In this document: piece after piece, positions 23,992-39,450 of the stretch
Layout: each line of letters starts with the position of its first letter
Numbering within the stretch: the stretch's first letter is position 1
Assembly (NCBI GenBank): GCA_030589165.1
Contig: JAUUWG010000003.1
Location: 1-45,841 of the forward strand
DNA: 45,841 nt
Reading direction: 5' to 3'
Source of the DNA: Desulfobacterales bacterium
GTDB lineage: Bacteria; Desulfobacterota; Desulfobacteria; Desulfobacterales; JAFDHS01
Made by a program: the position numbers and the translations under genes
Notes under the pieces: generated by a model
Told to the model about the DNA's origin: nothing
The model's input: the letters and a program-made list of their open reading frames with translations, nothing else
Databases searched by the model: none

Positions 23992-24429
23992 TTACTCTAC
24001 TCTGATTTTAACTTCCCGGACTCTTTCCGGTTTGTATTTAGGAATAAATATTTTTAATATGCCGTTTGTATAGGTTGCCTCAACATTGTCGAGCATTACC
24101 CGACAAGGGAGTGGAATGGTCCGGAAAAAAGACTCTTGTCTTACCTCAATTTTTCCACCTTTCTTAACGACTTCTTGTTTCATCTCCCCTTTAATGGTCA
24201 GGACACCATCGTTGATCGAGATGTCCAAATTCTCCGGATTAAAACCAGGTATCTCAGCATTGACAACCAAATGGTCCTTTGTTTGTAATAAATTTATAAA
24301 GGGAACCTTACTGACGACCCTTGGCAAAAGAGGCATATCAAAATCATTGCAAAACCTGTACATGAGGCGGTCCATATCTCTTTTCAATTTCCTCATTTCC
24401 TGATCTATCCATATGGTCAGCTCGGGCAT
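23992..24429 (-). CDS. Small heat-shock protein Hsp20/alpha-crystallin family
   Basis: AEIPG...LDISINDGVLTIKGE, FFRTIPLP, ATYTNGILKIFIPK, C-terminal V-x-I-x-V; GGAGG RBS. Confidence 0.92.
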   Translation of the reverse strand: MPELTIWIDQEMRKLKRDMDRLMYRFCNDFDMPLLPRVVSKVPFINLLQTKDHLVVNAEIPGFNPENLDISINDGVLTIKGEMKQEVVKKGGKIEVRQESFFRTIPLPCRVMLDNVEATYTNGILKIFIPKYKPERVREVKIRVE

Positions 24430-24997: not shown

Positions 24998-26962
24998 ATG
25001 GCGGAAAAGATAACAGGGCCGGAAATCAAACCACTCGATATGGAAAAGACGACCACTTGTGAAGCCACAGCCCAGATGCTCACAAAAGCGGAAAAAGACG
25101 GCGTGGAAACTGCTTTTCATCGGGCAGCCGCAATGAAGGCCTGTCCCATCGGTGCGGATTCGGCATGCTGCAAACACTGTTCCATGGGACCCTGCCGCTT
25201 GGTTTCCAAGGATCCCTATTCCAAGGTGGGCGTGTGCGGAGCCACGATCGACACCATTATGGCCCGAAACTTTGCCCGTATGGTAGCAAGCGGTGCTGCA
25301 GCCCATACCGACCATGGTATGAGCATGCTGGATGTATTCAGAGAAGTGGTCAAGGGCGACCTTAAAGATTATCAAATCAAGGATACCAAAAAGCTAAAAG
25401 AGGTTGCCGCATCTATCGGCATCGAAGTGGAAGACCGGAAAGTCGATGAAATCGCCACAGACCTTTACGAGGAGCTGGAACGGACCTACACCCAGGTCGA
25501 AGGCGAAATCCCCTTTGCCCAAAGGGTGCCTGAAAAGACCTTGGAAACCTGGAGAAAGAACGGTATCGTTCCGCGCGGTGCCATGCGGGAAATCATGGAA
25601 CTTATGCATCGAACCCACATGGGTGTGGACCAACACTATGAAAATATCACCAAGCAGTGCAGCCGTACAGCGTTGGCTGATGGATGGGGTGGATCCATGG
25701 TGGCCACGGAAATCTCGGATATTCTCTTTGGCACACCTACCCCTGTGGCTGCCGAAGTCAATATGGGATGTCTGAAAGAAAACGAAGGCAACATCATTAT
25801 CCACGGCCATGAACCCAACCTCTTTGAGTCCATGTTGGCTTCGGTCAATAATCCTGACAAGATCCAGGCGGCCAAAGATGCCGGTGCGGAAGGAATCAAT
25901 CTGGTCGGCATGTGTTGTTCCGGGGCTGAGATGCTTTCCCGGCACGGAATCCCCCATGCGGGTAACTTCATGTCCACGGAAGCGATTCTGGTCACCGGCG
26001 CTGTAGACGCCATGGGTGTGGATGTTCAGTGCATCAAGCAGGGTCTGGCCAAGGTGGCTGAGTGCTACGGAACCCATCTTTTTACCACCAACCCCAGGTG
26101 TAAGATTGAAGGGGCTGAACATATTGAACTGGACGAGCATCATCCCAGTCAATGTACGGATGCAATCGTTGATAAGGCCATTACGCGATTCAAAAACCGG
26201 ACACGGCCCGTGGAGATTCCCAATATCAGCAACATGGGTATTCACGGTTTCTCTGCCGAATCCATCAAGTACATGCTGGGTGGGACCTTCAGGGGCTCTT
26301 ATGTCCCCCTGAATGACAATATCATTAACGGCAGAATCCGGGGGGTGGCCGGCGTCGTGGGGTGCACAAACCCGAGGGTCAAACATGACTATGTTCATGT
26401 AGAGATGGTCAAGGAATTGATTAAGCACGACGTCCTCGTGGTCCAGACCGGATGTTCCCAGATAGCCCTTGCCAAAGCAGGGCTTTATAGACCTGAAGCC
26501 GCCTATCTGGCAGGTCACGGCTTGAGAGAGGTCTGCGAGACGGTCGGTATGCCGCCGGTTCTGGGTTTGGGATCATGTGTAGATAACAGCCGCATCCTCA
26601 TTGCATGCTCTGAAATGGTTAAAACGGGCGGACTTGGCGACAGCATCGCTGATTTGCCGGTTGCAGGAGCGGCTCCTGAGTGGATGAGCGAAAAGGCGAT
26701 CTCCATTGGTCATTATTTCGTCGCATCCGGCGTTTATACCGTATTCGGAGTTACGTTCCCCATTATCGAAAATACCAAATTCAAAAAACTTCTTTTTGAC
26801 GGTCTGGAAGATGATGGACTCGGGAAATGGGGCTTTGCCAGAGATCCCTATGAAATGGCACATCTGATGATCGACCATATCGACAAGAAACGTAAGGCCT
26901 TGGGCATCGACAAGGCCAGGGAAAGAGTTCTTATGGATATGGAAGCTCGCATGGCCCTCTAA
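24998..26962 (+). CDS. cooS: Anaerobic Ni,Fe carbon-monoxide dehydrogenase catalytic subunit
   Basis: D/B-cluster CPIG....CCKHCSMGPC, VCGA, AAHTDH; C-cluster ligands HGHEP, GMCCSG, DVQC, GCTN, TGCS, GSCVD; MSEKA; GGAGG RBS. Confidence 0.96.
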   Translation: MAEKITGPEIKPLDMEKTTTCEATAQMLTKAEKDGVETAFHRAAAMKACPIGADSACCKHCSMGPCRLVSKDPYSKVGVCGATIDTIMARNFARMVASGAAAHTDHGMSMLDVFREVVKGDLKDYQIKDTKKLKEVAASIGIEVEDRKVDEIATDLYEELERTYTQVEGEIPFAQRVPEKTLETWRKNGIVPRGAMREIMELMHRTHMGVDQHYENITKQCSRTALADGWGGSMVATEISDILFGTPTPVAAEVNMGCLKENEGNIIIHGHEPNLFESMLASVNNPDKIQAAKDAGAEGINLVGMCCSGAEMLSRHGIPHAGNFMSTEAILVTGAVDAMGVDVQCIKQGLAKVAECYGTHLFTTNPRCKIEGAEHIELDEHHPSQCTDAIVDKAITRFKNRTRPVEIPNISNMGIHGFSAESIKYMLGGTFRGSYVPLNDNIINGRIRGVAGVVGCTNPRVKHDYVHVEMVKELIKHDVLVVQTGCSQIALAKAGLYRPEAAYLAGHGLREVCETVGMPPVLGLGSCVDNSRILIACSEMVKTGGLGDSIADLPVAGAAPEWMSEKAISIGHYFVASGVYTVFGVTFPIIENTKFKKLLFDGLEDDGLGKWGFARDPYEMAHLMIDHIDKKRKALGIDKARERVLMDMEARMAL

Positions 26963-27178: not shown

Positions 27179-29122
27179 CTAAGACTCACACTCAGCCGAA
27201 TTATTTATTTTTTTAAGATACCTTGTTCTGTATTTTTCCAATTCATCAGCCACCTGCGGCAAGTCATATTCCTTTAATATTTCAGCCTTGGGAAACCCTG
27301 TTTCATTATCCCATCCACGTACCTGGTAATAGAGCGGAATAAGCTCATCTTCAGGGAAGAGGACACCTTTGTTGGGTCCATCGGGCATCGGTTCTTCTGT
27401 AAAACGACGGGGACTTTTGTCCTCTAATCGCCCCACCAATAAACGGTTCCAGTAAGCTCTTTCCAGATGAACGATGCGTCCACCTATTTTCAACAATTCA
27501 TCTGCCGAAAAGTCTATTCCGGTAGCCGATGAAACCATCTTAGCCATATCCTCGGGAAGGACGGCAAAGGACCATGAATGGGTAAATGAACACTGAGTAA
27601 GGCAATCGCCCACTGCTTTAACGTCCTCTGAGTACTTTTCCATTTCCGGTTTCTTTACTTTTGAGAGACGATCTTCAGCCTCACTGGTTCCTAAAATCTT
27701 TTTCACCAGACCGGGGTAAAAGCCACCGGTCAACTCCAGACAGGGCAACCCCTGGAGGTGATCACCGCCGCGCCTCCCCGTAGCAAAGCCTATACCAAAG
27801 GCAAATCCCAGCCCCCGGGGATCGTCCTGGGACATATCATGCCCCTTGATTGTCATTGTATAATACTGCCCACGATTAAAATGCTTTGCTGCATAATGAG
27901 CCCCTTCAGCCAAAACATCTCCAAAACCCCGGCGTGAAGCAATCATTTTTATTAATTTATCAATCAACTCCTGATCACCCCATTTCAGAACCAGGCCGTC
28001 TGTATCTTCTTGGGTCAACAGACCCTTTTCGTAACACTCCATGGCCCAGGCAATGGCGGCACCGCAGGAACATGAATCCATCCCCAATTCATTTACCAGT
28101 TTATTGTTGTGAATAATCGATGCCGGATCCAACAGACCGATCCGGGGACCGATACCGGCCAGAGTTTCGTATTCCGGTCCTCCTGTAATTTCTCCGGCAT
28201 ATTTCCCCTTGGAAATTTTGCTGAACCTTCCGCAGGATATCGAACAAGCAAAACACCCCTCCCGGTGTGCCAAAAAATTATCCCGGTGGTTCTCACCGCT
28301 AAGCAATCTTCCATCCGGGTGATGTCCCTTTTGAAAATTTCTCCAGCACAACCATCCCTGCTCATAGTTTGCCGGCATGGTCAGAAGCAAGGTACCTTGG
28401 TCATACAACATCTGAGCCATCAGGTCCTGCTTGAGTTTTTCCCTTGCCTGAGCACAGATTTTAAAAAATTCCTTCGGTCGTGCTATTTCTACGGGAGTTG
28501 TACCCCGAAGTGCTACCGCTTTAAGATTTTTGGAGCCCATAACAGCCCCCATGCCGCACCGGCCTGCAGCGCGGTAAACATCGCTCATCATACAGGCATA
28601 GCGAACCCTGTTTTCACCAGCAGGACCGATAATGGCTATATGTATGTCATAATTATTCAATTCTTCTTTAATCATGGCATCAGTCTGAGGTATATTTTTA
28701 CCCCAGAGATGCTCGGCATCCCGGATCTCTACCTGATCATTATGAATGTAAAGATATACCGGGCTTTCAGCTTTACCTTGTATAATTAGTTGGTCATGTC
28801 CTGTATATTTCAGTTCCGCACCCCAGTGGCCACCCATATTTGAATCCCCAAAACCCGGAGGATCCTGAATAGGAGATTTTGTCGTAACCGTACACCTCCC
28901 ACTGGAAGGAGCAAAAGTTCCCGTGAGTGGACCGACACCGAAAACAAGGCGATTTTCAGGTGAAAATGGTTCTACCTCCGGTCCCACTTCCCGATATAAA
29001 AGCTCCGAGTTCAGTCCCCGTCCGCCTAACCATTTTTTTAAATGCCCGACGGGAATTTCTTCAACTGTTACCTTTTTGCTGCTTAAATCTACACGCAGCC
29101 TTTTTCCTCTATAACCGTACAT
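27179..29122 (-). CDS. Tungsten-dependent aldehyde:ferredoxin oxidoreductase family protein
   Basis: LRVDLS, LGGRGL, SNMGGHWGAELK, IGPAGEN, RAAGRCGMGAVMGSKNLKA, CFACSISC, PEYET, DPRG, RGGDH. Confidence 0.94.
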   Translation of the reverse strand: MYGYRGKRLRVDLSSKKVTVEEIPVGHLKKWLGGRGLNSELLYREVGPEVEPFSPENRLVFGVGPLTGTFAPSSGRCTVTTKSPIQDPPGFGDSNMGGHWGAELKYTGHDQLIIQGKAESPVYLYIHNDQVEIRDAEHLWGKNIPQTDAMIKEELNNYDIHIAIIGPAGENRVRYACMMSDVYRAAGRCGMGAVMGSKNLKAVALRGTTPVEIARPKEFFKICAQAREKLKQDLMAQMLYDQGTLLLTMPANYEQGWLCWRNFQKGHHPDGRLLSGENHRDNFLAHREGCFACSISCGRFSKISKGKYAGEITGGPEYETLAGIGPRIGLLDPASIIHNNKLVNELGMDSCSCGAAIAWAMECYEKGLLTQEDTDGLVLKWGDQELIDKLIKMIASRRGFGDVLAEGAHYAAKHFNRGQYYTMTIKGHDMSQDDPRGLGFAFGIGFATGRRGGDHLQGLPCLELTGGFYPGLVKKILGTSEAEDRLSKVKKPEMEKYSEDVKAVGDCLTQCSFTHSWSFAVLPEDMAKMVSSATGIDFSADELLKIGGRIVHLERAYWNRLLVGRLEDKSPRRFTEEPMPDGPNKGVLFPEDELIPLYYQVRGWDNETGFPKAEILKEYDLPQVADELEKYRTRYLKKINNSAECES

Positions 29123-29127
29123 AATAA

Positions 29128-29616
29128 TTATCCCTCCATCACGGTGAATTTCATGTTCAGCTCCCGACGTTTGGACATCATATATTCATCAGCAAAAACA
29201 TATGTCAGTGCCCCGGAAGGACAGTATTTTACGCAGACAGGATCCCCGCCGCATAAATGGCACTTAAAGGCCGCCTCTTTTTCAGGGTGAAAATTAATCT
29301 GCCCAAAAGGACAGGATTGGAGGCATTTGTGACATCCAATGCAATCCGTTTCATTGATAATCACAGCTCCTGTAACTTTGTCATGGACAATAGCACCGGC
29401 TGGACAGGCCGACATACATTGAGGCTTGCTGCAATGGGAACACACCGTGGGAAAATTCATGCCCTTTGCTTCAAACTTAATTATCCTTATTCCTGAGAGT
29501 ACCGGACTGCATTTCTGCTCATTGTATAACGAGCAGGCCATTTCACAGGTCCTGCATCCTGTGCACTTTGACGGGTCAACCATCAAAACCTTTTGAGCCA
29601 CGTTTTTTACCTCCAT
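29128..29616 (-). CDS. 4Fe-4S multicluster electron-transfer subunit of the AOR
   Basis: Four Cys clusters (CTGCRTCEMAC, CSHCSKPQCMSACP, CIGCHKCLQSCP, KCHLC...CVKYCP); 5 bp upstream of the AOR gene. Confidence 0.93.
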   Translation of the reverse strand: MEVKNVAQKVLMVDPSKCTGCRTCEMACSLYNEQKCSPVLSGIRIIKFEAKGMNFPTVCSHCSKPQCMSACPAGAIVHDKVTGAVIINETDCIGCHKCLQSCPFGQINFHPEKEAAFKCHLCGGDPVCVKYCPSGALTYVFADEYMMSKRRELNMKFTVMEG

Positions 29617-30059
29617 CTATAAGTACCCGATCATATATTTTTTAACACTTTTAAAGAGTCTATGCTCTTTTTATTTTGAGGCTTACATCGAAGAAAAGTT
29701 AAAACCTTTTGTACGGGTACTTACGAAAATATTTAATTTTCATTTTTGTAACCGCTTGTTAATATATCGATTATTTTTCCCCCAAAAACAATTACGATTT
29801 TAATGTCAAGATCAGCAAAAAAAGAAAGAAAGATACATGTATCCCGAATTGAGCCATTACCTTTATAAAAATGAATCGCCTGCTTCAAGTTAAATTTGAG
29901 TACAATGATAAAAAATCAGTACACTGCGCGATCTTCTTGAATACAGCTATTGACAATAACACTTATGTATGACATCGACCGTAAAACTAAAACCCAATAA
30001 ACAAAAATCATTATAGGAAAACCTTTTTGGTTATAGCTTGTCCAGATTAGGAGATTAAG

Positions 30060-31322
30060 ATGAATCAAGAAAGAAAATGGGTTATGATCGCGGCGGTTTT
30101 ATTGGCATTCTCTAGTTTGTGTGCCGCCTCAACTGCATATGGTTCGGGATTCGGTATTTTTACGCAAGGGGCATCAGCCCTTGGCCAGGCAGATGCCGTT
30201 GTCGCTCACACCGATGAACCCTCGGCCATTTTTTTTAATCCCGCACTGATCAATGACCTTCCGGGCACACAGATGGAAATCGGGACGACATTGATATTTC
30301 CCTCCCGGGAATTCAAAAGCGATTTGACCGGAAGTACCTCCGAAGGGGAAGATACGATGTATTACCCTAGTACCTTTTTTCTTAGTCATTCATTTAATGA
30401 CAAGGTCAGCGCAGGACTTGGCGTCTTTAATCCTTTCGGCCTGGGAACCGAATGGGATGACGACTGGGAAGGACGGTATATAGCAACCAAATCGGAAATT
30501 ACAACCTACACTGTCAACCCCATTCTTTCATACCGGATAACCCCTCGTGTCTCATTTGCCGCCGGAGTTGATTTTCTTTGGTTTGATACAACACTGAAAA
30601 AACGAATAAGTTTGGCCGATTATGGTCTTCCTGATGCAGGACAAAAATTTTCAGGCGATGGTAACGGCATCGGATATAATCTCGGCATTCTTATAAACAT
30701 CAGCGATAACATTTCCCTGGGGGCTTCATACCGCAGTGAAATTGATGTCGATGTCGACGGGGATGCCTCTTTTAAACTCCCCTCCCCCCTGCTCAGCGGT
30801 GTATTCCCCAATACCGGAGGCGAAACGGATATCACGCTTCCACAGCAGGTTTTTGCCGGCATATCATACATAGCTTCCGATCAACTGACATTGGAAGCGG
30901 GCTTAAGATGGGAAGACTGGTCGTCGTTCAAAGAGCTTACAATAGATCTTGATCAGCCGATTGCAGGCCAAACATCTATTACGGAACCCAAAAACTGGGA
31001 TTCTACGTATGCTGTGAATATAGGGGCCAAATACAAATTAAATAAAGTTGTTTCACTTCTGGCCGGCTATCTGTATAGTGAAAACCCGGTACCTGATACG
31101 ACATTCGAACCCTCCGTCCCGGATTCCGATACTCATCTTTTCTGTGTTGGAACGGATATGAAATTCAAAAAATTCAAAATTGCCATGAGCTACGCGTACC
31201 AGCGACAGGAAGATAGGAATAAAAACAATTTCGTTGGAGGTAAAGACCCTTCACGTTCTGCTAACGGCAGATATGAAACGGAACTCCATCTGCTCGGTAT
31301 CAGTCTGGCTTACAGATTCTAA
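30060..31322 (+). CDS. OmpP1/FadL-family outer-membrane channel for hydrophobic molecules
   Basis: Signal peptide, hatch motif GF...QGASALGQA...AIFFNPA, PFGLGTEW, SYRS, PSVPDSD, C-terminal Phe. Confidence 0.92.
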   Translation: MNQERKWVMIAAVLLAFSSLCAASTAYGSGFGIFTQGASALGQADAVVAHTDEPSAIFFNPALINDLPGTQMEIGTTLIFPSREFKSDLTGSTSEGEDTMYYPSTFFLSHSFNDKVSAGLGVFNPFGLGTEWDDDWEGRYIATKSEITTYTVNPILSYRITPRVSFAAGVDFLWFDTTLKKRISLADYGLPDAGQKFSGDGNGIGYNLGILINISDNISLGASYRSEIDVDVDGDASFKLPSPLLSGVFPNTGGETDITLPQQVFAGISYIASDQLTLEAGLRWEDWSSFKELTIDLDQPIAGQTSITEPKNWDSTYAVNIGAKYKLNKVVSLLAGYLYSENPVPDTTFEPSVPDSDTHLFCVGTDMKFKKFKIAMSYAYQRQEDRNKNNFVGGKDPSRSANGRYETELHLLGISLAYRF

Positions 31323-31344
31323 GAGTCTGTTTGAAAAACAGGGG

Positions 31345-31403
31345 ATCGAAGCGACTCATTAACTTTCACTCATTTCTAACTTTTCCGGTTTATCCGGGTT
31401 AAG
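31345..31403. repeat. Half copy of the modular repeat
   Basis: CGAAGCGACTCATTAACTTT...CTTTTCCGGTTTATCCGGGTTAAG is similar to the reverse complement of 20983-21032. Confidence 0.65.
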
Positions 31404-31414
31404 AGATTTAGAAT

Positions 31415-32224
31415 ATGCACCATCAGGAATACTTAATGGAAAGTGACGAAGAAGCGCTTCGTCTTGACCTCAAAACAGACGGTAAAGTTGTCGAAAAACA
31501 GGCACTGTGGGCGGGCATAAAACCGGGGATGCGCGTAGCTGATATAGGCTGTGGTTCAGGGATAACCACTTTTTACCTGAACAAACTGGTCCAACCGAAC
31601 GGAAAGGCCGTCGGAGTGGATATCTCCAAAGAGAGAATCAGGCACGCAAAAAAAAATTACAGTGACACAGGAATAGAATTTACTTGTAAGAATTTTTATG
31701 ACCCTCTGGATAATATTGGAATGTTTGATTTTATATGGGTTCGTTTTGTTCTTGAGTACCATCATTCAAAAAGTTTTGATATCGTCAAAAACCTATCCAA
31801 TATTCTGAAACCCGGTGGAATTCTCTGTCTTATAGATTTGGACTATAACTGCCTGACCCATTACAACCTCTCTCAGAGACTTGAAAAAACTATTTATAAA
31901 ATAATAAACACTTTGGAAAAGAAGTTTGACTTTGATCCTTATACAGGAAGAAAACTCTACTCGTACCTTTATGATCTTGGCTACCGGAATATTGACGTAG
32001 ACCTTTCCCCGCATCATCTGATTTTTGGAGAATTAAAAGAAACCGACGCCTTCAACTGGACGAAGAAAGTGGAAATTGCGGCAAAAAATTCAGGATATCG
32101 GTTTGACGAATACGAAGGTAGCTATGAAGATTTTTTTGAAGAGTTTAAGCGCTTTTTTGCAGATCCAAGGCGATTTACCTATACGCCTGTCATCTCCTGC
32201 CGGGGGTGCAAGCCTGTAACGTAA
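31415..32224 (+). CDS. Class I SAM-dependent methyltransferase
   Basis: RVADIGCGSG, VGVDIS, FDFIWVRFVLEY, LKPGGILCLID. Confidence 0.9.
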   Translation: MHHQEYLMESDEEALRLDLKTDGKVVEKQALWAGIKPGMRVADIGCGSGITTFYLNKLVQPNGKAVGVDISKERIRHAKKNYSDTGIEFTCKNFYDPLDNIGMFDFIWVRFVLEYHHSKSFDIVKNLSNILKPGGILCLIDLDYNCLTHYNLSQRLEKTIYKIINTLEKKFDFDPYTGRKLYSYLYDLGYRNIDVDLSPHHLIFGELKETDAFNWTKKVEIAAKNSGYRFDEYEGSYEDFFEEFKRFFADPRRFTYTPVISCRGCKPVT

Positions 32225-34210
32225 TTACATTGACGAAACCATTTCCAGAGGCAGTTTATCTGCATGTGCCTTGGTATAGTAGTTGTAAAAAGCTTCAACA
32301 ATCTTTTCATCAAAGTGGATGCCGCTTTGCTTCCATATCAGCTCAAATGCTGCTTCAAGGGGCATCGGATCCCGATAGTGACGCTTGGCGGTGATGGCTT
32401 CAAAAACATCTGCCACGGCAATTATCCTGGCACCCAATGGTATCTCTTTACCCTTGAGGCCTTTCGGGTAACCGCTTCCGTCAATTTTTTCGTGGTGCGC
32501 ACCGGCAATTTCAGGAACCTGGCTGAAAATCCCTTCAAAATTGATCTGTTCCAGAATTTTCCTGGTTTTTTCGGCATGGGTTTTTACGATTTCGTACTCT
32601 TCTTCCGTCAGTTTTCCCGGTTTTTTCAAAATTGCATCCGGAACCCCTATTTTACCATAATCGTGGAGCAATGCCGCCACCCGGATCATTTCACTCTCAT
32701 CCTCGGGAAGCCCCAATTCATTACATATTCCTAAGGTGTATTCAGTGACCTTTTGAGAATGGCCTGCTGTCAGAGGATCCCTGGCATCGATACTGGCGGC
32801 CAGAACTTCTAAAATTGATCTGAATTGCCGCTCCCTGGCTTCCAGGAGTTCTCCATTGCGGATACTGATCCCTATAGTAGGCGCTATCCCCATCAATAAA
32901 CTCAAGTCGCTCTGGAGTAGTGGTCTTTTTGATTTCAGATTGTCTACCACAAGAACCCCAATCGACTCTCCATCACAGATAATTGGACAACAGACAAACG
33001 ATTGAGTTCCCAGTTTCTTTGCAAACACCAGACTCCGCAGTGAAAGATCATTTTCTATCTCTTCAATGTTATTTATCAAAAACGGCTTCTGTTCCCGAAA
33101 TGAAACAACAAAAACCCCTTTTGATTCCGGCCTGTCCAAATGGAAAGCCATCTTTTTGAGAAACCTGAGCTGATCGTCCGTATAGCCGTACCCCACCCGG
33201 AACATCAGCTTGGTTTTTTCCGAATTTGCCAAAAGAATCATGCCCCGGTCATAATCGAGCCGATTCCGTGAAATCTGAATAACATTTGCTAAAATATCTT
33301 CGATACTTGTTTGCCTGCTGATAGCCTGTCCTATCTCATTGGTCATAAGAGCATTATTATAGTTAATTTTGATGTGTTCAAGCAGCTCGTCAGATGCCCC
33401 CATGAGGTTGTCCAGACTGGCTTTCAACTCCTTGTTTTCCATGCTTACGCCAATTAAGATCAATCCAAGAACAATAATGATTGAAACCGGCAAAAAGATC
33501 TTCAGTATAACAAATGGAGAGATAAAGATGGAAATCAGGCAAGTCAAAAAAAGAAACAACGCAGTGTAATTTGTTATTTTCTTCCATAAAAAAGAAAACG
33601 GGTTTTCCCAGGAAATTATGTAACGGCAGATATTTCCGCCTTTGAACATGCATTCCGGATGTTCAATTCGTGGCGGAGTGTTGGTAAAAATCATTGAAGC
33701 AGCATCAAAAAATCCCATTCTGTTTTCACATTGAAAAAGTCTTTCAATAACTCCCTCATTCGGTGTAACGGTAATCTCAACCTTATTGGAAGTTATTTTC
33801 CTTGATTTACAAATTGATGATTTAGTGAAATTAGAAGTTGCTTTTCCTATTGTTTCATATACATTCGCCGGGCTCATCATACCCAGAATGTACTGCCTCA
33901 TTACCCCTATAGCTTCGGGGGAAGCCGCGTATCGGCCTGCCTCCCGGGCAATGTTCTTATTACCGGTTACCTGTACAAGCCTTTCGTAAAACAGATTTAT
34001 CTGTTCCTGGGTAAACCAGTGCCCCTGATCGGCAACCTCGTATGGCTTCATTTTGGCGGAACTTAATAATTCGGTTATGTTTACATGGCTGTATTTTCTT
34101 TTAATAAGCTTAATATACGTATCTATTATTCTGCTGCTATACAGGGGGATGTTTTCTTTATCAGACAGTATCTTCACGGCAGTACCTGAAAAAATTACAA
34201 AAAAATTCAA
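32225..34210 (-). CDS. Membrane-anchored HD-GYP cyclic-dinucleotide phosphodiesterase with V4R-like N-terminal and GAF domains
   Basis: DARDPLTAGHS, LLHDYGKIG, HHEKIDGSGYP, ARIIAVADVF; GAF segment (CCPII...IGVLVVDN); two hydrophobic helices; N-terminal CENRMG...IEHPECMFKGGNICRY. The start codon is uncertain. Confidence 0.88.
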   Translation of the reverse strand: MNFFVIFSGTAVKILSDKENIPLYSSRIIDTYIKLIKRKYSHVNITELLSSAKMKPYEVADQGHWFTQEQINLFYERLVQVTGNKNIAREAGRYAASPEAIGVMRQYILGMMSPANVYETIGKATSNFTKSSICKSRKITSNKVEITVTPNEGVIERLFQCENRMGFFDAASMIFTNTPPRIEHPECMFKGGNICRYIISWENPFSFLWKKITNYTALFLFLTCLISIFISPFVILKIFLPVSIIIVLGLILIGVSMENKELKASLDNLMGASDELLEHIKINYNNALMTNEIGQAISRQTSIEDILANVIQISRNRLDYDRGMILLANSEKTKLMFRVGYGYTDDQLRFLKKMAFHLDRPESKGVFVVSFREQKPFLINNIEEIENDLSLRSLVFAKKLGTQSFVCCPIICDGESIGVLVVDNLKSKRPLLQSDLSLLMGIAPTIGISIRNGELLEARERQFRSILEVLAASIDARDPLTAGHSQKVTEYTLGICNELGLPEDESEMIRVAALLHDYGKIGVPDAILKKPGKLTEEEYEIVKTHAEKTRKILEQINFEGIFSQVPEIAGAHHEKIDGSGYPKGLKGKEIPLGARIIAVADVFEAITAKRHYRDPMPLEAAFELIWKQSGIHFDEKIVEAFYNYYTKAHADKLPLEMVSSM

Positions 34211-34235
34211 GGTTGAATTGAATTAAAAAAAATCT

Positions 34236-36302
34236 TTAAAAGTCAAGTTCCATTTTCCGAAAACCCGAGAATTTAATCATATGTTTAAGGCATCTGAAAT
34301 AATGATCCGTATACTGCATATCCAAAACCCACAGGTTATATATTTTTTCATGAGATAGTGACAGATTCTCTGCATAAGTTGCAGGATATAAAAGCACGGG
34401 CATTTCATCCTCCTCGATTTTTTCAGAAACGGCTGAGAGTATCAACTGAAGGGTATCACCGGAAAGCTCCTCCGGATTCAGGACAAAAACATTGATGCAA
34501 TTGGTCAGATCAGACATGTTCAAGCCGATATCCGAGATATTTACCATGATGATGGCCTTAAGACTGCCGTTCTCTTTCAATGAGAAAAGATGTCTTTCCC
34601 GTTTAAAACCCAACCGTTGATATTCCTTTGAGATTTCATCCAGGTCAAGCATGTCCGGCTCCAGATTGAGGGCCCGAATCATAAGCCCTCCCGAATGATG
34701 CTCGTAAAAACTTTCCAGTTCCTGGAGGTCTTCGGACCGGGTTTCAGTCAATCTCCACAGCCCTGGCATATCCGCTTTACTACGAAGTATTCTTCGAAAA
34801 TTAAAATAGACAAAGGTATCAATAGAAGATCCCTTTGCATTTTTTATATTTTGGGTAACCGTTCCAAAAACACGGCTGGGGAATTTATTATCAGGCCTGA
34901 AAAAACAGAAAACAAAATCCATATGCATGGAAAAAAGACGATGGGAATCATTTATAAACCCTCCCATCTGGTTCAACACAACCAGTCCGGCCTTGTGGCA
35001 GACGGAGCTTCTGGCGGCATGGTGATGAAGAAGCCATGAATTTTGATAAAAACGTACCATTGCCATATGTCCCAAAATACAACCTTTATCCTGATATATG
35101 AAATGTCTGGCGATGTTCGGATTCTGGGTGTAAAGTTTTTCATAGGTTTTTTTGATTTCCTCTTTGTTTTTCTGAATATACGAATATTTTTCCGGATAAA
35201 TAAAACCTGTTTCAAAAAAGAAATTCCACAGATCGTCCAGATCCACCTTGTTGCAGATGTAAGAATTCCTGTTTTTTACCTGATCCAGAAGACTTAGAAG
35301 CCTGACATGATCCTGAATGTCCATATCAAGAATAAACAGACCGCATTTTACCAAATTGTTTTCTTCCCCTTCACCGCAACTCCGACAAACAACCTGAGCC
35401 TTGCATTTGATCTCGAAGCTGTTCGCAAAGCTCAGCGCCAACTCGGGTATGATCATGCCCGCTAAAAGAACGGCGTTGTTCTCGTCTTCTTCTACCGAAA
35501 AACCAGAACCAGACAGCTCGAGAACCTTCAGGTTAACCATCTTTATAGTAAAAGGGTGTACAAAAATAATATTTGGCGAAGGGATCAGTTTATGTCGTGT
35601 ACTGCGGAATTGCTTGGGTTTAAACCTTTGTATCTCATGACATAAAGGTTCCAGTACATAGTCTCGCGTTTTCTGTGAAGAAGTTTGCCTGACTATCCTG
35701 CATTCTCCGGAATAAAGCGTCTCAGAGCCATCAGAAAAAACGAGGTTTACCGGGAATTCAGGATTAATCCACTGAAATGTCTGGGGGGGAGCTGTCGATA
35801 GTTCGATACGGAAGGAAACGGCGCTAAAATCTATGAGAACGCCATAAAACGACACGCTGTTTTGAAACAAAGATACATTTATGCCTTTGCATAAATGCCT
35901 TTTCACTTTTCGGGAACTGATTTCGTAGCATTTTTCCGGGAGATTGAGGCTGATGCCCTTCGCGCTTATGCTTTTCATTTCAGCCTTCACCAAAAGAAGA
36001 TTTTGGCCGTCGTTGACGAGAAGATTTTGGAATTCATACGATTTCAGTTTCTGATCAAGCCCGTCGGTTTCTATCCAGACACATTCCAAGCAGTCGTCGT
36101 GACAGGGCTGCAATTCGGCATGGAGAGAAATTGTGTTGTTATATTTTTTGTGTTTGAGGTTTATGAGGACAGTGCCGTCCTGGAAATTAATGTAGTTTAG
36201 TTTATTGATTAAATTTTTTTTACTGACCGACTTCCTTGTTTCCTGTTCACTCTCTTTGTTGATTGTGCTGATAACTTGAGGAATTCCCTGCCTGTCCCAC
36301 AT
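34236..36302 (-). CDS. Tandem-PilZ-domain protein with a C-terminal acyltransferase (GNAT)-like region
   Basis: RKVKR...DFSAVSF and RSTRH...ELSGSGF PilZ-type motifs. C-terminal LWNFFFETGFIYP...ILGHMAMVRFYQNSWLLHHHAA region; the GNAT assignment is tentative. AGAGG RBS. Confidence 0.72.
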   Translation of the reverse strand: MWDRQGIPQVISTINKESEQETRKSVSKKNLINKLNYINFQDGTVLINLKHKKYNNTISLHAELQPCHDDCLECVWIETDGLDQKLKSYEFQNLLVNDGQNLLLVKAEMKSISAKGISLNLPEKCYEISSRKVKRHLCKGINVSLFQNSVSFYGVLIDFSAVSFRIELSTAPPQTFQWINPEFPVNLVFSDGSETLYSGECRIVRQTSSQKTRDYVLEPLCHEIQRFKPKQFRSTRHKLIPSPNIIFVHPFTIKMVNLKVLELSGSGFSVEEDENNAVLLAGMIIPELALSFANSFEIKCKAQVVCRSCGEGEENNLVKCGLFILDMDIQDHVRLLSLLDQVKNRNSYICNKVDLDDLWNFFFETGFIYPEKYSYIQKNKEEIKKTYEKLYTQNPNIARHFIYQDKGCILGHMAMVRFYQNSWLLHHHAARSSVCHKAGLVVLNQMGGFINDSHRLFSMHMDFVFCFFRPDNKFPSRVFGTVTQNIKNAKGSSIDTFVYFNFRRILRSKADMPGLWRLTETRSEDLQELESFYEHHSGGLMIRALNLEPDMLDLDEISKEYQRLGFKRERHLFSLKENGSLKAIIMVNISDIGLNMSDLTNCINVFVLNPEELSGDTLQLILSAVSEKIEEDEMPVLLYPATYAENLSLSHEKIYNLWVLDMQYTDHYFRCLKHMIKFSGFRKMELDF

Positions 36303-36744
36303 CTTTTTACCTCTTTAGTTAAAGAATATCGACTTGCTTTTGGCTTGTGCGTTTTGATTTTGGACATTTGCTGAGGAGTTGTTGAAAAATGCCTAACATT
36401 CTGGTTGCAATGGATTTGAATTGATCCCAGCGCAATAGTAAATATTTTATCTCTGGAAAAAGCCGCAACTGTTTTTAGTCCCTTATATGAAAGCCCATAA
36501 AGTGCATAGGTAAGGTATTAAGTCATTTTAACCAGACTATGAGCGACTTCTCAATAAGTCCGGGCGGCTCAAATTAAAGGAGTAGAATGAAAAACAATTA
36601 CTCGAATACAGTTGAGATAGTTAAAAATTTAATAAAATGCAACTCCAAATCGAAGACAAAGAAAAAAAGTCGGCATTCATCACATGTTAGAATTAAATTG
36701 CCCGAGATTATTAAAAACTTGTCTGCGCGCCTTACTTATTTCGT

Positions 36745-36773
36745 TTGACACCCAACATGCTATTACTTATATT
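36745..36773 (+). promoter_or_regulatory. Sigma-70-type promoter for the TAXI-fusion/DUF2491/pspA-like cluster
   Basis: TTGACA-N17-TATATT, about 110 bp upstream of the 36882 start. Confidence 0.65.
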
Positions 36774-36881
36774 TATTCAAACAATCGGCTTTTCGGCGCC
36801 TTAACATAATAAAATTTTGCGTTCGGTAAAAACATCAAAGCAAACAGAAAGGAGAACACCTTTCATCATTAAGGAAATATA

Positions 36882-38630
36882 ATGAAAAAAAAGATCGTTA
36901 TTTGTCTTGCCGTCTTACTGAGTTCAGCTCTTTTAGTTAGTGATTATATTTTGACAACTGAAGATGCCTGGGCCGGCCGTTCCCGGTCAAGTTTCAGTAG
37001 ATCCGGCTCATCCTTCAGCCGATTGAGTCCCAGCAGAAGCGTCTGGGGCAGCAGGAGTGGAGGAGGAATATTCAAAAAAACATCCAGCTCGTCAGGATAC
37101 GCAAAGCCCTCATCTTCAAAAAAATCCTATAAATACGCCAAGCCCAAGTCTGCCGTTCCAGGTTCCACCTCGTCCAAGAAATACAAAAAACCCGATAAAG
37201 CCGCATCTTCTGGTTCAGGCGGTTACGCAAAACCGAAAAAATCTTACACGGCATCGTCGTTTTCTGGAACAAAATACGACCGAAAAAAAATAAAAAAAAT
37301 CCGGAAGACCAAATCCGCTCAATCTTTAAAGGCCTATAAGGCGGAAAAGGCTAAATATAAAAAATCCGCATCCAAACCGGATCCGAAACAGTTCAGATCG
37401 AGTCCCATATACAATAAAACCCAAAGATACGGGTCCTTTGATTACAACGATCACTATACCCGACGAAACGGTTATTACCATGGTATGGGCTGGTCCATGC
37501 CTTCCTACGGCTATCTTTCCAGACCCGGTTTCGGTATGTGGGACGTTATGTTCTGGTGGATGATTCTGGATCATGTCGGAAACCGCAATTATGCCGCGAC
37601 CGCATATCACCATTCAAATGATCCGGGCTATAAGGAATGGCGGGCCGAAGCCGAAAGACTTGCCGAAGATAATGCTCAGATCAGGGAGAAACTGAAAAAA
37701 CTCGATCAGGAAACCGCATCCATGCGAACTCCCCGTGATCCGGGTTATCTACCTTCAGGCGTTCCAGCCGAAGTCGCCCTTGCGGCCGATGTCATGGCCT
37801 CAAAAAAATCCGAACGTCCCCTACTCCGTATGGCAACCGCTTCAAAAACCGGAAATTATAATTATTTCGGAACGAAACTGGCCGGGTATGCCGAAGGCGT
37901 AAACGTTGAACTCCGCAACAGCAACGGCTCCATGGAAAATCTGCGGCTTCTGATGAATGATGAAGTAGACGCAGCCCTGATCCAATCCGACGCCTTTGCC
38001 GTATATCAAAAAAAGTTTCCGAATTCACACCTTATATCCGAACAAACCGTTTTGTACAAGGAAGCCGTACAGATGATTGCAAACAAAAAATCAGGTATCA
38101 AGTACGTCGATGATATCGATCCGGACAGACATTTCCTTATTGTGGGTCCCAAAGGCTCAGGGACGGCATTGACATGGGAAGCATTTTGCATGGAGGACTC
38201 CGGTTATCGAAAAATAAGAACCATGAACATGGCCTACCCAAAAGCCTTAAAAGAGGTCGAAAAAAATCCTGACGCGGTTATGATGTTTGTTTCCGGGCTA
38301 AACAGTCCGCTCCTCAAAGAGGCCGAAAAAATGGCCGGTGAAACGAGTAACCTTCGTCTGGTTGCAGTGGACGACTGGGATTTCAACGATACATTGGATC
38401 AAAATGGAAACAGGGTCTATACATTCACCACTATCCCCACATCGATTTATCCGAATTTGCAAAAAGGATTTATTTTCGACAGAGATATTGAAACTCTTGC
38501 CGTCGATTCGGTACTTGTGGTCCGTACCGACTGGGTCGAAAAATACGGTGTCGAAGCAATGGACGCCTTGTCTTTTGCCGTTATGGAAACCCAGCCTCAT
38601 GTGGCTCGCCGGGTCCAGGGGCTGGAATAA
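36882..38630 (+). CDS. Secreted fusion: Ser/Lys-rich low-complexity region, aromatic/hydrophobic segment, coiled coil and TAXI-type solute-binding domain
   Basis: Signal peptide ending AWA; YAKP-type repeats; FGMWDVMFWWMILDH. From about residue 311, TAXI motifs LRMATASKTGNY, SNGSMENLRLL, DAALIQSD, LYKEAVQMIA, VGPKGSGT. Confidence 0.8.
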   Translation: MKKKIVICLAVLLSSALLVSDYILTTEDAWAGRSRSSFSRSGSSFSRLSPSRSVWGSRSGGGIFKKTSSSSGYAKPSSSKKSYKYAKPKSAVPGSTSSKKYKKPDKAASSGSGGYAKPKKSYTASSFSGTKYDRKKIKKIRKTKSAQSLKAYKAEKAKYKKSASKPDPKQFRSSPIYNKTQRYGSFDYNDHYTRRNGYYHGMGWSMPSYGYLSRPGFGMWDVMFWWMILDHVGNRNYAATAYHHSNDPGYKEWRAEAERLAEDNAQIREKLKKLDQETASMRTPRDPGYLPSGVPAEVALAADVMASKKSERPLLRMATASKTGNYNYFGTKLAGYAEGVNVELRNSNGSMENLRLLMNDEVDAALIQSDAFAVYQKKFPNSHLISEQTVLYKEAVQMIANKKSGIKYVDDIDPDRHFLIVGPKGSGTALTWEAFCMEDSGYRKIRTMNMAYPKALKEVEKNPDAVMMFVSGLNSPLLKEAEKMAGETSNLRLVAVDDWDFNDTLDQNGNRVYTFTTIPTSIYPNLQKGFIFDRDIETLAVDSVLVVRTDWVEKYGVEAMDALSFAVMETQPHVARRVQGLE

Positions 38631-38730: not shown

Positions 38731-39450
38731 ATGAATAGCTCGTGGCGGATATTCAAGGCAGTAGCCGCTAAAAAAGCCGAAGGTGTCAAGGATCTTTTTA
38801 AGCGGGAAAAAACAGCAAAACCTGTTGATCGGGATCTTCCCTTAGGCCTTCACATCAACGGGAAAATACTTTTGGATCAAACACCTTTTCTCCTCTGGGA
38901 AGATAAGATGACCGTGGTGTTTCCGGGCAAAGCGCAGCAGGTTGCGGCTTACGGAAAGGCAACGATCGGGGATTCGTATCTGCACAGATTTTACCTTGTC
39001 TCAGATGATGGTCGAAACGAAGAGTCCATGCTCCAGATTACCTGTGATATGAAAAACGATATCCGGGAATGCCGGCTCTTTCGATCCATGGATGAAGTTG
39101 TGCCGGAAAGCCAAGAGGATTGGGATTTCTGGTTGAGCGAAGAAGACGGATCTATAGGCTGGCAGGCCTTCGAGAGCAAAGAAGGGGTTTTATACGATCG
39201 AGCCTGGGATGACAGCGCGGATGACCATGTTCTTCCGATTGGGTTTGAAGAAACAGTCTATGCGGACAGCGCGGGCGAAGATAATCTCAAAATCTCCCAC
39301 GACGCCATGCTTTACGGCAGGTGGATCAACAAAGACGATGAAACTGCAGAATATATCCTCCTTTCGGCAGAAGACCATGGTGATACTGCCTTTGTTCATA
39401 TAATGGCCGGAATCGATATTAATCCCGCATCGATAAAGACGGTCTACTAA
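38731..39450 (+). CDS. DUF2491 (YjfK-like) family protein
   Basis: LPLGLHING, AYG...IGDSYLHRFY, LQI, LF....EVVP...W..WL....IG, YDRAW, H.AMLY.R, EYILLSAE, GIDI.P motifs recognised by eye; GGAG RBS. Confidence 0.75.
   Translation: MNSSWRIFKAVAAKKAEGVKDLFKREKTAKPVDRDLPLGLHINGKILLDQTPFLLWEDKMTVVFPGKAQQVAAYGKATIGDSYLHRFYLVSDDGRNEESMLQITCDMKNDIRECRLFRSMDEVVPESQEDWDFWLSEEDGSIGWQAFESKEGVLYDRAWDDSADDHVLPIGFEETVYADSAGEDNLKISHDAMLYGRWINKDDETAEYILLSAEDHGDTAFVHIMAGIDINPASIKTVY

Follow-up and report, generated by a model that had tools for sequence, protein, structure and literature searches.

A predicted c-di-GMP-gated tandem-GNAT protein and its linked methyltransferase as the conserved core of a widespread bacterial cassette

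What might a FadL-type channel, a methyltransferase, a PilZ protein, and a membrane HD-GYP protein do together when two convergent gene pairs encode them on a Desulfobacterales contig (JAUUWG010000003.1, positions 1 to 45,841; this 45,841-nt stretch is referred to as the window)? An earlier note, made from the DNA letters alone, proposed a self-contained module that makes or modifies, transports, and senses a lipid-like signal. It named neighbourhood conservation and structure prediction as checks, and held that a failure of the four genes to co-occur elsewhere would speak against the module. All four ORFs of the two convergent units were found (Table 1), and the stop codons of the methyltransferase and sensor genes indeed abut with zero gap, reading TAA/TTA. 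The fadL-type gene lies 93 nt upstream of the methyltransferase gene and is co-directional with it, and the sensor gene lies 25 to 58 nt downstream of the effector gene, which encodes a 688-aa protein, on the same strand. As the note had claimed, beta-oxidation genes were absent from the Pfam matches of the 34 window ORFs scanned, and neither aromatic-degradation nor beta-oxidation genes stand alongside the fadL-type gene. The wider window presents an ordinary housekeeping context.

Table 1. Coordinates of the genes, domains, and stop codons of the locus within the window
Feature	Position	Strand	Remarks
FadL/TodX-family outer-membrane channel gene	30060..31322	+	420 aa, signal peptide; accessory, not core, cassette member
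Class I SAM-dependent methyltransferase gene, dedicated	31415..32224	+	269 aa
Abutting convergent stop codons	32222..32227	.	TAA of methyltransferase; TTA (= TAA) of sensor gene; read from the sequence
Membrane-anchored sensor phosphodiesterase gene	32225..34210	-	661 aa from TTG; H-NOX/V4R-fold domain, TM hairpin, GAF, HD-GYP (predicted)
HD-GYP phosphodiesterase domain	32300..32806	-	residues 469-637; Pfam HD_5 (PF13487) E 3.6e-47
GAF domain	32861..33310	-	residues 301-450; Pfam GAF E 3.6e-14
Membrane hairpin, two hydrophobic helices	33446..33598	-	residues about 205-255
N-terminal ligand-sensor domain (predicted), H-NOX/V4R superfold	33602..34147	-	residues about 22-203
PilZ-gated (predicted) tandem-GNAT protein gene	34236..36302	-	688 aa; uncharacterised family
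Tandem (double) GNAT-fold half	34263..35279	-	residues about 342-680; invariant polar core
PilZ-2	35280..35615	-	residues about 230-341; R233-x-x-R236, then canonical D/E262-x-S264-x-x-G267
PilZ-1	35646..35912	-	residues about 131-219; R131-x-x-x-R135 in linker; degenerate second motif D158-x-N/S160-x-x-S163
Barrel 1, YcgR-N-like	35913..36173	-	residues about 44-130; model 22-254 compared with VCA0042/PlzD

To describe the neighbourhood, we used 80 loci related to the 688-aa protein locus, 69 of which had enough flank to judge the methyltransferase. The methyltransferase gene adjoins the PilZ-GNAT gene in 63 of the 80 loci (63 of the 69 assessable) and is convergent with it in 61 of those 63; 11 of the 17 loci without an adjacent methyltransferase end less than 3.2 kb downstream. 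Among 200 genomes of the phylum, 17 carry a full-length PilZ-GNAT gene, and these 17 include 13 of the 15 methyltransferase-positive genomes, while all 11 methyltransferase-positive relatives in the order sample (E ≤ 1e-102) carry the PilZ-GNAT gene. The effector occurs without the methyltransferase in 6 of the 69 assessable loci and 4 of the 17 phylum genomes. The pair stays together in at least four gene orders, including P688>sensor>MT<, P688>MT<kinase-sensor<, M48<P688>MT<, and, in 4 more distant genomes, MT>P688>. The sensor gene adjoins the PilZ-GNAT gene in 32 of the 80 loci, and its sensor module is fused either to HD-GYP (24 of the 80) or to a PAS-HisKA-HATPase-REC hybrid histidine kinase; in 4 of 5 genomes whose cassette has no adjacent sensor, it is encoded elsewhere.

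What is conserved is a core of PilZ-GNAT protein and methyltransferase, not the four-gene set. Effector, methyltransferase, and sensor are widely linked, as the neighbourhood check had called for, but a FadL orthologue is present in 7 of the 80 loci only. Since FadL recurs with the set at these 7 loci, the four genes do co-occur elsewhere. A fortuitous adjacency of four unrelated genes would fit the housekeeping surroundings and the co-directional FadL-to-methyltransferase order, which was seen in this window only among the loci examined, but it is very improbable in view of the linkage of effector, methyltransferase, and sensor across hundreds of genomes in several gene orders. For the three-gene core, chance adjacency is contradicted by this conserved linkage. 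A full-text literature search found no description of the cassette, which is widespread but unstudied.

The 688-aa protein was analysed with an AlphaFold model (pLDDT 83.9) compared by Foldseek and VIA, and residue conservation was counted over 85 full-length family members from every arrangement class. In the model, a YcgR-N-like barrel is followed by two PilZ barrels and then by a tandem GNAT. Residues 22-254 match VCA0042/PlzD (2rde_B; VIA Z 11.8, rmsd 4.2, 190 aligned), and residues 230-346, predicted to form a six-stranded PilZ β-barrel, superpose on the c-di-GMP-bound PilZ 4xrn (VIA Z 12.9, rmsd 2.0, 100 aligned, 22% identity) and match the Alg44 PilZ (VIA Z 12.5). The Pfam PilZ model PF07238, the only Pfam match of the protein, scored under its gathering cut-off at residues 141-213 (22.0 versus 22.5 bits); some homologues have a precomputed PF07238 match. 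RxxxR and D/NxSxxG are named as c-di-GMP-binding motifs in the part of the PixB paper drawn on here (PMC8316039). In the 688-aa protein this canonical signature is split, with PilZ-1 carrying RxxxR without a good D/NxSxxG (R131 in 83/85, R135 in 84/85; position 160 is N in 53/85 and S in 27/85), whereas PilZ-2 carries RxxR, not RxxxR, with a perfect DxSxxG (R233 in 84/85; R236, S264, and G267 each in 85/85; D262 in 77/85). Barrels 1 and 2 correspond in superposition to the YcgR-N and PilZ domains of the two-domain receptors YcgR, PlzD (VCA0042), and MrkH, and, as in these, RxxxR lies in the inter-domain linker; unlike these stand-alone adaptors or transcription factors, the 688-aa protein adds a third barrel and an enzyme half.

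For that half, residues 342-666 were modeled as a two-lobed GNAT fold. Foldseek gave a probability of 1.0 against 5kgh, VipF, and tandem GNATs, and the VIA Z-scores were 13.6 for 9emd (HisAT/NAT16; 264 aligned), 12.5 for 3c26, and 10.4 to 11.2 for 2wpx, 7q3a, and N-myristoyltransferases (about 10.5 for the last), with no separation of small-molecule from protein acyltransferases. The two-lobed GNAT is shared with HisAT/NAT16, the Clostridium acetobutylicum glucosamine N-acetyltransferase (5kgh), VipF, and N-myristoyltransferases (about 260 aligned, Z 10 to 13.6), but sequence identity to these is 6-14%, and the HHH strand and polar core are specific to the 688-aa family. No Pfam Acetyltransf_* or NCBIfam GNAT model matched the protein at E ≤ 0.01, and the family profile, run with hmmsearch on PDB sequences, had no match at E ≤ 1. 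The canonical acyl-CoA pyrophosphate loop of GNAT enzymes is Q/RxxGxG/A after β4. By inspection only, such a loop is not discernible in the GNAT half, where the strand WLxHHHAA is followed by (R)-x7-G439 (R431 in 45/85, G439 in 83/85). Because there is neither a model match nor a discernible loop, the donor may be other than acyl-CoA, or the domain may lack catalytic activity; the polar core invariant over the 85 members (H412, H426-H428, N472, S493, D495, Y533, and N595), on the other hand, argues for an active enzyme. The earlier description of a tandem-PilZ/acyltransferase-like protein agrees with the matches of the model to 4xrn, Alg44, VCA0042, and double-GNAT enzymes, and we regard the protein as a probable c-di-GMP-controlled acyltransferase.

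By published description, the closest characterised protein appears to be PixB (MXAN_2604) of Myxococcus xanthus. In the part of its paper drawn on here, PixB has two PilZ domains and a GNAT domain recognised by sequence, with RxxxR motifs at R121 and R331; it binds c-di-GMP and needs its acetyltransferase domain, which is proposed to be activated by c-di-GMP binding (PMC8316039). Judged from that part, both proteins have c-di-GMP receptor domains fused N-terminally to a GNAT-fold acyltransferase, but in the 688-aa protein the motifs lie at R131/R233, a YcgR-N-like barrel is added, and the double GNAT escapes Pfam. The same part describes for PixB no counterpart of the partner methyltransferase or of the V4R/H-NOX-GAF sensor.

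The gene product that the earlier note had called a SAM methyltransferase matched class I models, with Pfam Methyltransf_31/25/11 above their cut-offs (1e-16 to 2e-15). No NCBIfam model reached its cut-off, and a model specific for PhcB, the Ralstonia signal methyltransferase that the note had cited alongside RpfG of Xanthomonas, was absent among the best 25 of 54 NCBIfam models matched. An alignment of the family (69% mean identity) showed as invariant the GxGxG region, D69, D105, C138, D141, D143, N145, C146, H200, and C262; of the class I residues, G45, G47, G49, and D69 vary little or not at all. The best solved relative is 3mgg (E 2.6e-16); other PDB matches are phosphoethanolamine N-methyltransferase (2e-9), juvenile hormone acid O-methyltransferase (9e-9), and, as a protein-modifying enzyme, Rickettsia protein lysine methyltransferase (3e-8).

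These matches bear on the possibility that the cassette is a protein-modifying regulator, in which the tandem GNAT would acylate or acetylate proteins in the manner of PixB, Pat-type lysine acetyltransferases, or N-myristoyltransferases, the methyltransferase would methylate a protein, possibly the sensor or effector, and FadL would be unrelated. PixB, as described in the part of its paper used here, would be a precedent, and the structural matches of the GNAT half include the protein acyltransferases VipF, N-myristoyltransferases, and Eis. At least two of the 150 representatives listed for the GNAT half (P0136 and P0170) carry NERD and a Ser/Thr protein kinase as fusion partners, which places them in a signalling context, and in four kinase-type loci (L021, L046, L065, and L109) the methyltransferase gene is directly downstream of the sensor kinase gene on the same strand. 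However, no target is identifiable, the PDB matches of the methyltransferase are no better for protein than for small-molecule methyltransferases, and the recurrence of FadL in HD-GYP-type loci would be unexplained. We consider this explanation unlikely.

The sensor gene probably starts at GTG 34177 rather than at TTG 34210, because an AGG lies upstream of the former. Its product is a predicted HD-GYP phosphodiesterase, with a full-length HD_5 match (profile positions 2-170 of 170) and intact HD and HHExxDGxGYP motifs ('HDYGK' and 'HHEKIDGSGYP' in the translation). An NCBIfam NosR-family response-regulator PDE model matches this part (E 2e-40), but far under its cut-off (139 versus 400 bits). 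RpfG is a receiver-HD-GYP protein; the input of the present protein, unlike that of the RpfG type, is an H-NOX/V4R-fold domain, membrane hairpin, and GAF. The model of the sensor N-terminus (pLDDT 84.4) has helices at 205-228 and 232-299, whose hydrophobic stretches are residues 205-228 and 232-255. It is predicted to adopt an H-NOX fold, with H-NOX proteins the best Foldseek matches (E about 1e-6, TM (target) 0.69-0.77, rmsd 3.2-4.4, about 190 columns), followed by the VirS N-terminus (2.4e-4), Bet3 (1e-3), and the MopR V4R domain (1e-3; TM 0.32/0.44). The domain calls of the earlier note were borne out by the models of both the 688-aa and HD-GYP proteins, with the V4R-like sensor holding at the level of the fold; H-NOX was its best match, and the match to MopR V4R was weak.

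The sensor domain shares its superfold with H-NOX and apparently with the V4R domains of DmpR, MopR, and XylR, but it differs from V4R in having no Pfam match and in being placed by Foldseek far closer to H-NOX than to MopR. Neither Pfam V4R (PF02830) nor HNOB matched it even at E ≤ 10; the sole Pfam matches of the N-terminal region at this threshold were Arabinose_bd (E 0.019) and DUF7442 (E 0.33, on the membrane helices). C161, H184, C187, and C195 are invariant in the sensor alignment, and the three cysteines are spaced C-x25-C-x7-C, just as the zinc ligands Cys151, Cys177, and Cys185 are in DmpR (PMC7264223). H184 is a possible candidate for a fourth zinc ligand in place of Glu. Haem in H-NOX proteins is contacted by a proximal His and a Y-x-S-x-R motif. 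By inspection, this motif is missing from sensor residues 1-210, and the only invariant His residues of the domain are H64 and H184, neither of them in the helical stretch that supplies the haem ligand in H-NOX, suggesting that the domain is probably haem-free. The fold class and membrane anchoring of the sensor, together with FadL as an accessory, make a hydrophobic ligand plausible.

The porin of the earlier note is a full-length match to Pfam Toluene_X/FadL (PF03349; E 1.2e-65, 222 bits versus a 29.7 cut-off, profile positions 2-421 of 421) and has a signal peptide, as in FadL/TodX channels; it falls far under the cut-off of NF007988, the NCBIfam equivalog for the E. coli long-chain fatty acid transporter FadL (103 versus 585 bits, E 1.2e-29). 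Orthologues with 47-60% identity stand beside the cassette in the 7 loci mentioned above, all HD-GYP-type, which amounts to 7 of the 18 HD-GYP-type loci with at least 1.8 kb of flank beyond the last cassette gene; no orthologue stands at any of the 56 loci that lack an HD-GYP sensor, whether kinase-type or sensor-less. A further HD-GYP locus (L108) has a 34%-identical paralogue. The 7 loci belong to Geobacteraceae and Geomonas, Desulfuromonadales, Desulfurivibrio, and Planctomycetota/Brocadia MAGs, with FadL in varying positions and orientations. FadL is therefore a recurrent, lineage-variable accessory, not core.

This distribution weighs on the cell-cell signalling reading, in which GNAT and methyltransferase would make an acylated, methylated, lipid-like autoinducer that FadL lets through the outer membrane, and the membrane-anchored V4R-type sensor would detect it and regulate its synthesis in feedback by way of HD-GYP and PilZ. 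The four families come together in 7 other loci of several lineages, and the varied placement of FadL argues for selection over inherited synteny. The sensor domain is at the membrane, its fold class includes binders of hydrophobic ligands (the phenol sensors MopR/DmpR and palmitoylated Bet3), and among structures the GNAT half comes closest to an amino-acid N-acyltransferase solved with N-myristoyl-histidine (9emd/9emp; in the part of PMC12219266 drawn on here). On the other hand, 73 of the 80 loci have no FadL orthologue, among them 11 of the 18 HD-GYP-type loci with at least 1.8 kb of flank, and only 1 of 40 order relatives has one, at a contig end. No exporter and no sign of secretion or density dependence were seen, the sensor domain is cytoplasmic, so that an external signal is not required, and the Z-scores do not tell acyltransferases of small molecules from those of proteins. 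Such a lipid-signal circuit is possible, though quite improbable: of the module first proposed, three genes stand as a conserved set, and FadL joins it only occasionally.

We favor, at slightly better than even chances, a c-di-GMP-gated acyltransferase that works with a methyltransferase of its own and that, in this window, is tuned by a phosphodiesterase sensing a ligand. Judged by motifs and fold, the arginine-rich linkers of the two PilZ barrels would be the sites at which the 688-aa protein binds c-di-GMP. Binding would switch the C-terminal double-GNAT domain, which may acylate or acetylate an amine substrate. The linkage of the methyltransferase suggests that it may belong to this pathway and share the substrate or product of the acyltransferase. 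The cytoplasmic H-NOX/V4R-fold domain and GAF would control the intact HD-GYP phosphodiesterase, so that local c-di-GMP would fall, and the acyltransferase be reset, in response to a ligand that is probably hydrophobic or carried in the membrane. The FadL-type channel may let a hydrophobic compound related to the module pass the outer membrane. Because a kinase output or an unlinked sensor excludes HD-GYP feedback, such feedback would apply only to a subset of loci, including this window. In favor of this reading, at least five GGDEF genes are present in the genome. Counting against it, the methyltransferase gene is mostly convergent, not operonic, with the effector gene.

An ORF check recovered the four genes exactly where the earlier note had placed them: genes for a FadL-type channel and a SAM methyltransferase (MT) facing those for a membrane HD-GYP protein (the sensor) and a 688-aa PilZ and tandem-GNAT protein (P688, the effector). 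The convergent stop codons of the MT and HD-GYP genes were read as abutting (TAA/TTA, 32222-32227), and none of the 34 window ORFs scanned was a β-oxidation gene, both as the earlier note had claimed. The remaining window is housekeeping, encoding GlnD, PII, PolA, an HrpA-like helicase, Lon, RecD2, a CO dehydrogenase/prismane protein, an aldehyde:ferredoxin oxidoreductase (AOR), and a GlnRS-type synthetase. Rfam at gathering thresholds gave 0 matches over the whole window, with no c-di-GMP or other riboswitch detected, and a promoter/terminator scan of 29000-37500 gave counts inside the shuffle range (23 versus 18.7 ± 4.4; 11 versus 7.7 ± 3.0) and nothing resembling a terminator where the MT and HD-GYP genes converge.

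Coordinates of the features described in the window and in related loci (L numbers)
Feature	Sequence	Coordinates	Strand	Remarks
FadL/TodX-family channel, full-length	window	30060-31322	+	Pfam Toluene_X, E 1.2e-65; signal peptide
Class I SAM methyltransferase	window	31415-32224	+	generic models alone match
GAF + complete HD-GYP protein (sensor)	window	32225-34210	-	HD_5, E 3.6e-47; HD and HHExxDGxGYP motifs
Effector, 688 aa	window	34236-36302	-	PilZ match sub-threshold (Pfam); 0 NCBIfam families
NMT1_3 protein, 582 aa	window	36882-38630	+	divergent from effector gene
DUF2491 protein	window	38731-39450	+	Pfam
AOR and 4Fe-4S ferredoxin	window	27179-29616	-	5 nt apart; divergent from FadL
Prismane/CO-dehydrogenase family	window	24998-26962	+	E 1.3e-165
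ORF, 374 aa	window	25394-26518	-	0 Pfam matches
LonC/LonB-like protease	window	21235-23829	-	
Hsp20	window	23992-24429	-	
Canonical Lon	window	14259-16655		
B12-binding radical SAM enzyme	L026	10106-11482	-	within cassette
B12-binding radical SAM enzyme	L030	6604-8031	+	within cassette
B12-binding radical SAM enzyme	L059	10097-11485	-	within cassette
Second radical SAM type, ~530 aa	L027	12839-14434	-	adjoins MT
Second radical SAM type, ~530 aa	L058	10192-11784	-	adjoins MT
Second radical SAM type, ~530 aa	L104	13087-14799	+	adjoins MT
Cell-envelope run with kinase-type sensor	L120	4718-12393		
Cell-envelope run with kinase-type sensor	L121	1447-9255		
Second, paralogous sensor	L067	2947-5040	-	Geomonas
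Second, paralogous sensor	L075	2950-5430	-	Geomonas

To follow the neighbourhood, we used two locus samples from the same genome collection, 17 loci of order-level relatives (sample 1) and the 80 best loci of a species-representative search (sample 2); their counts are not summed, since at least one contig is shared (L021 is L041). The MT gene adjoined the effector gene at 9 of the 17 loci in sample 1, with an HD-GYP sensor at 5, a kinase-type sensor (the same sensory module on a histidine kinase) at 4, and FadL at 0. In sample 2, MT was present at 63/80 loci, or 63/69 of those assessable, because the sequence stops within 3.2 kb downstream in 11 of the 17 MT-less loci; MT was convergent with the effector gene in 61 of the 63. 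The sensor N-domain was found at 32/80 loci and HD-GYP at 24/80, the alternative output being a PAS-HisKA-HATPase-REC protein of ~960 aa (Pfam). The gene orders were P688>sensor>MT<, with FadL present or absent; P688>MT<kinase-sensor<; M48<P688>MT<S1>, without an adjacent sensor; P688>...MT>sensor<, at 2 loci; and MT>P688>, in 4 more distant phylum members. Four of five genomes whose cassette had no adjacent sensor encoded the sensor family elsewhere. Thus, of the four-gene neighbourhood proposed in the earlier note, the linkage of effector, MT, and often sensor is conserved, but FadL occurs at few loci (8/80 in sample 2).

The FadL genes comprised seven orthologues at 47-60% identity and one 34% paralogue. 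The orthologues are carried by Geobacteraceae, two Geomonas species, a Desulfuromonadales MAG, Desulfurivibrio, and two Planctomycetota/Brocadia MAGs. All seven orthologues lay in HD-GYP-type loci (7/18 of those whose flank past the final cassette gene reaches 1.8 kb or more), against 0/56 loci without HD-GYP. FadL was directly divergent from MT in five of the seven, separated from it by an ORF at L090, and upstream of the effector gene at L083; among the loci examined, the window alone has it co-directional with MT, 93 nt upstream. One of 40 order relatives (G018) had a close orthologue (63%), at a contig start, and its contigs ending in FadL and in MT do not overlap, so that linkage there cannot be told. 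From this limited and varied distribution, FadL is an accessory that recurs with one type of cassette and is not part of the core.

The phyletic pattern is given as counts and not as tests, as related genomes are non-independent. Within the order (41 genomes, genome G000 included; MT orthologue at E ≤ 1e-102), the effector was present in 11/11 genomes with an MT orthologue. G007 had a partial MT match at a contig end, with no effector found there; seven genomes had a strong effector match without MT, and G025 a weak effector match (E 2.8e-7). Among 200 phylum genomes of ≥90% completeness (MT cut-off E ≤ 1e-40), 17 had a full-length effector, 15 had MT, and 13 had both, within 5 kb on one contig in 9 of the 13.

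Several other neighbours were considered. The M48 peptidase, S1 protein, ABC, and AsmA genes were judged to be synteny of the M48<P688>MT< subgroup, because they are absent from the loci shown for the two sensor-adjacent arrangements, except L071. A B12-binding radical SAM enzyme is encoded within the cassette at three loci and fills the MT slot at two, in genomes without an MT orthologue (G026, G012); we rejected it as a strict MT replacement, since L059 carries both side by side. A second radical SAM type was seen at three further loci. At L120 and L121, the kinase-type sensor gene comes after genes for FtsX, an M23 peptidase, an S41 protease, and a divergent polysaccharide deacetylase, a cell-envelope run seen in genomes whose cassette has no adjacent sensor. 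Two Geomonas loci have a paralogous sensor ~3 kb upstream of the effector gene, its N-domain 48% identical to that of the window's sensor.

An AlphaFold model of the effector, built from a 22-sequence alignment (mean pLDDT 83.9), has three β-barrels (residues ~44-130, 142-219, and 244-327) followed by an α/β half (347-680). By Foldseek and VIA-align, residues 22-254 resemble the YcgR-N and PilZ unit of VCA0042 (Z 11.8), and residues 230-346 resemble c-di-GMP-bound PilZ domains (4xrn, Z 12.9, rmsd 2.0; Alg44, Z 12.5). Residues 342-666 resemble double-GNAT enzymes (HisAT/NAT16 9emd, Z 13.6, 264 aligned; 3c26, Z 12.5), with glucosamine N-acetyltransferase, VipF, tandem GNATs, and N-myristoyltransferases at Z ~10.4-11.2. 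These double-GNAT Z-scores all lie too near one another to show whether the substrate is a small molecule or a protein. Among 85 full-length family members, the linker arginines were near-invariant (R131 83/85, R135 84/85, R233 84/85, R236 85/85), as were S264 and G267 of the PilZ-2 second motif (85/85 each); PilZ-1 carries a degenerate second motif, and in PilZ-2 RxxR stands in place of RxxxR. Kinase-type and sensor-less loci retain this PilZ signature to the same degree, and c-di-GMP control therefore looks intrinsic to the effector. The GNAT half has an invariant polar core (H412, H426-428, N472, S493, D495, Y533, and N595); inspection by eye recognised no canonical acyl-CoA loop in this half. 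A family profile matched 0 PDB sequences, and a protein atlas search with the GNAT half returned mostly members of the family itself; weak clusters labelled GNAT, at 0.83-0.85, are leads only. Complex prediction for effector and MT scored 0.00 in both runs and carries no weight either way.

A model of the first 300 residues of the sensor (pLDDT 84.4) gave an H-NOX-type fold in a structure search (TM 0.69-0.77 to H-NOX structures), with weaker matches to the VirS N-terminus, Bet3, and the MopR V4R domain; two long hydrophobic helices follow (205-228 and 232-255). Y-x-S-x-R is the H-NOX haem-contact motif; neither it nor an invariant His at the haem-ligation site was seen in the N-domain. C161, H184, C187, and C195 are invariant in the family, with the cysteines 26 and then 8 residues apart, the same intervals as separate the zinc ligands Cys151, Cys177, and Cys185 in the V4R domain of DmpR (PMC7264223). 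The sensor is predicted to hold zinc but no haem. Calling it V4R-like is fair at superfold level; Pfam detected neither V4R nor HNOB in the N-domain. Its listed TTG start, 34210(-), adds ~11 residues missing from homologues; the GTG at 34177(-), with AGG ahead of it, better fits the conserved N-terminus.

The evidence best supports a c-di-GMP-gated acyltransferase that works with a dedicated MT. The effector, a predicted PilZ-controlled acyltransferase, would be gated by c-di-GMP, which the at least five GGDEF genes of the genome could supply, and the MT would act alongside. In the window, the gene for the sensor phosphodiesterase lies 25-58 nt beyond the effector gene, downstream on the same strand; its product would set local c-di-GMP according to a ligand bound at the membrane-proximal H-NOX/V4R-fold or GAF domain. 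HD-GYP feedback looks like a feature of only a subset of cassettes.

The earlier note proposed a self-contained module for making or modifying, transporting, and sensing a lipid-like signal, with c-di-GMP feedback. A bolder reading is that the four genes form a new, quorum-sensing-like hydrophobic-signal circuit of anaerobes with c-di-GMP feedback on its own synthesis. Here, the double GNAT would N-acylate an amino acid or amine under c-di-GMP control and the MT would cap the product. The resulting molecule would be neutral and able to permeate membranes, similar in design to N-acyl amino acid methyl esters, which have been reported from marine bacteria. FadL would move it across the outer membrane, and the membrane-tethered sensor would read it and hydrolyse c-di-GMP, closing the loop; the hosts would be Desulfobacterota, Geobacterales, and anammox planctomycetes. 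We consider this full proposal improbable. The earlier note's lipid-signal circuit is compatible with the sensor's fold class, its membrane anchoring, and the accessory FadL, and is required by none of the results. About as likely as a lipid-signal circuit is a protein-modifying role like that of Myxococcus PixB: two of the 150 GNAT-half representatives listed (P0136 and P0170, ~1210 aa) carry NERD and Ser/Thr protein kinase domains ahead of the PilZ and tandem-GNAT unit (Pfam), a rare fusion that gives the family a protein-signalling context.

PixB is the closest characterised protein to the effector: this M. xanthus protein joins a pair of PilZ domains to a GNAT domain, binds c-di-GMP, and needs its acetyltransferase domain (PMC8316039). 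The effector family differs from it in domain count, a cryptic double GNAT, and conserved partners. Full-text searches, which do not cover subscription journals, retrieved no paper describing the cassette, and the PixB paper was the sole relevant one on PilZ-GNAT proteins.

Few c-di-GMP effectors have an enzyme reaction, rather than binding, as output, and PixB, the sole PilZ-GNAT protein studied, still awaits a substrate. The effector family is large: a word-filtered search gave 2594 clusters of relatives at 90% identity, named 'hypothetical' or 'PilZ domain-containing' and nothing else. A relative was encoded in 541/600 matched stretches of species-representative genomes, and the GNAT half alone had 1211 representatives at 50% identity (410 at E ≤ 1e-30). 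With its dedicated MT, and often its own ligand-sensing phosphodiesterase or kinase, the cassette is a compact system in which to ask what chemistry is activated by c-di-GMP in sulfate reducers, metal reducers, and anammox bacteria. This question is directly testable, as all four genes occur together in strains that have been cultured (Geomonas silvestris Red330, G. limicola Red745, and Desulfurivibrio sp. C05AmB). Its wide distribution and small size, and the chance to test it in Geomonas cultures, give the cassette moderate interest.

The genes flanking the cassette in the window were also inspected. Only the C-terminal half of the 582-aa protein is NMT1_3 (periplasmic-binding-like), its first ~300 residues matching nothing in Pfam; the DUF2491 gene comes after it, and tblastn found neither gene in related loci. 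The same-strand AOR and ferredoxin genes were rejected as cassette members, each occurring at 1/80 loci at 28-34% identity (AOR 28%). The prismane-family gene occupies the window's most GC-rich kilobases (0.51-0.53), and the 374-aa ORF inside it on the opposite strand is probably spurious. The LonC/LonB-like protease gene adjoins the Hsp20 gene, and a canonical Lon is also encoded in the window.
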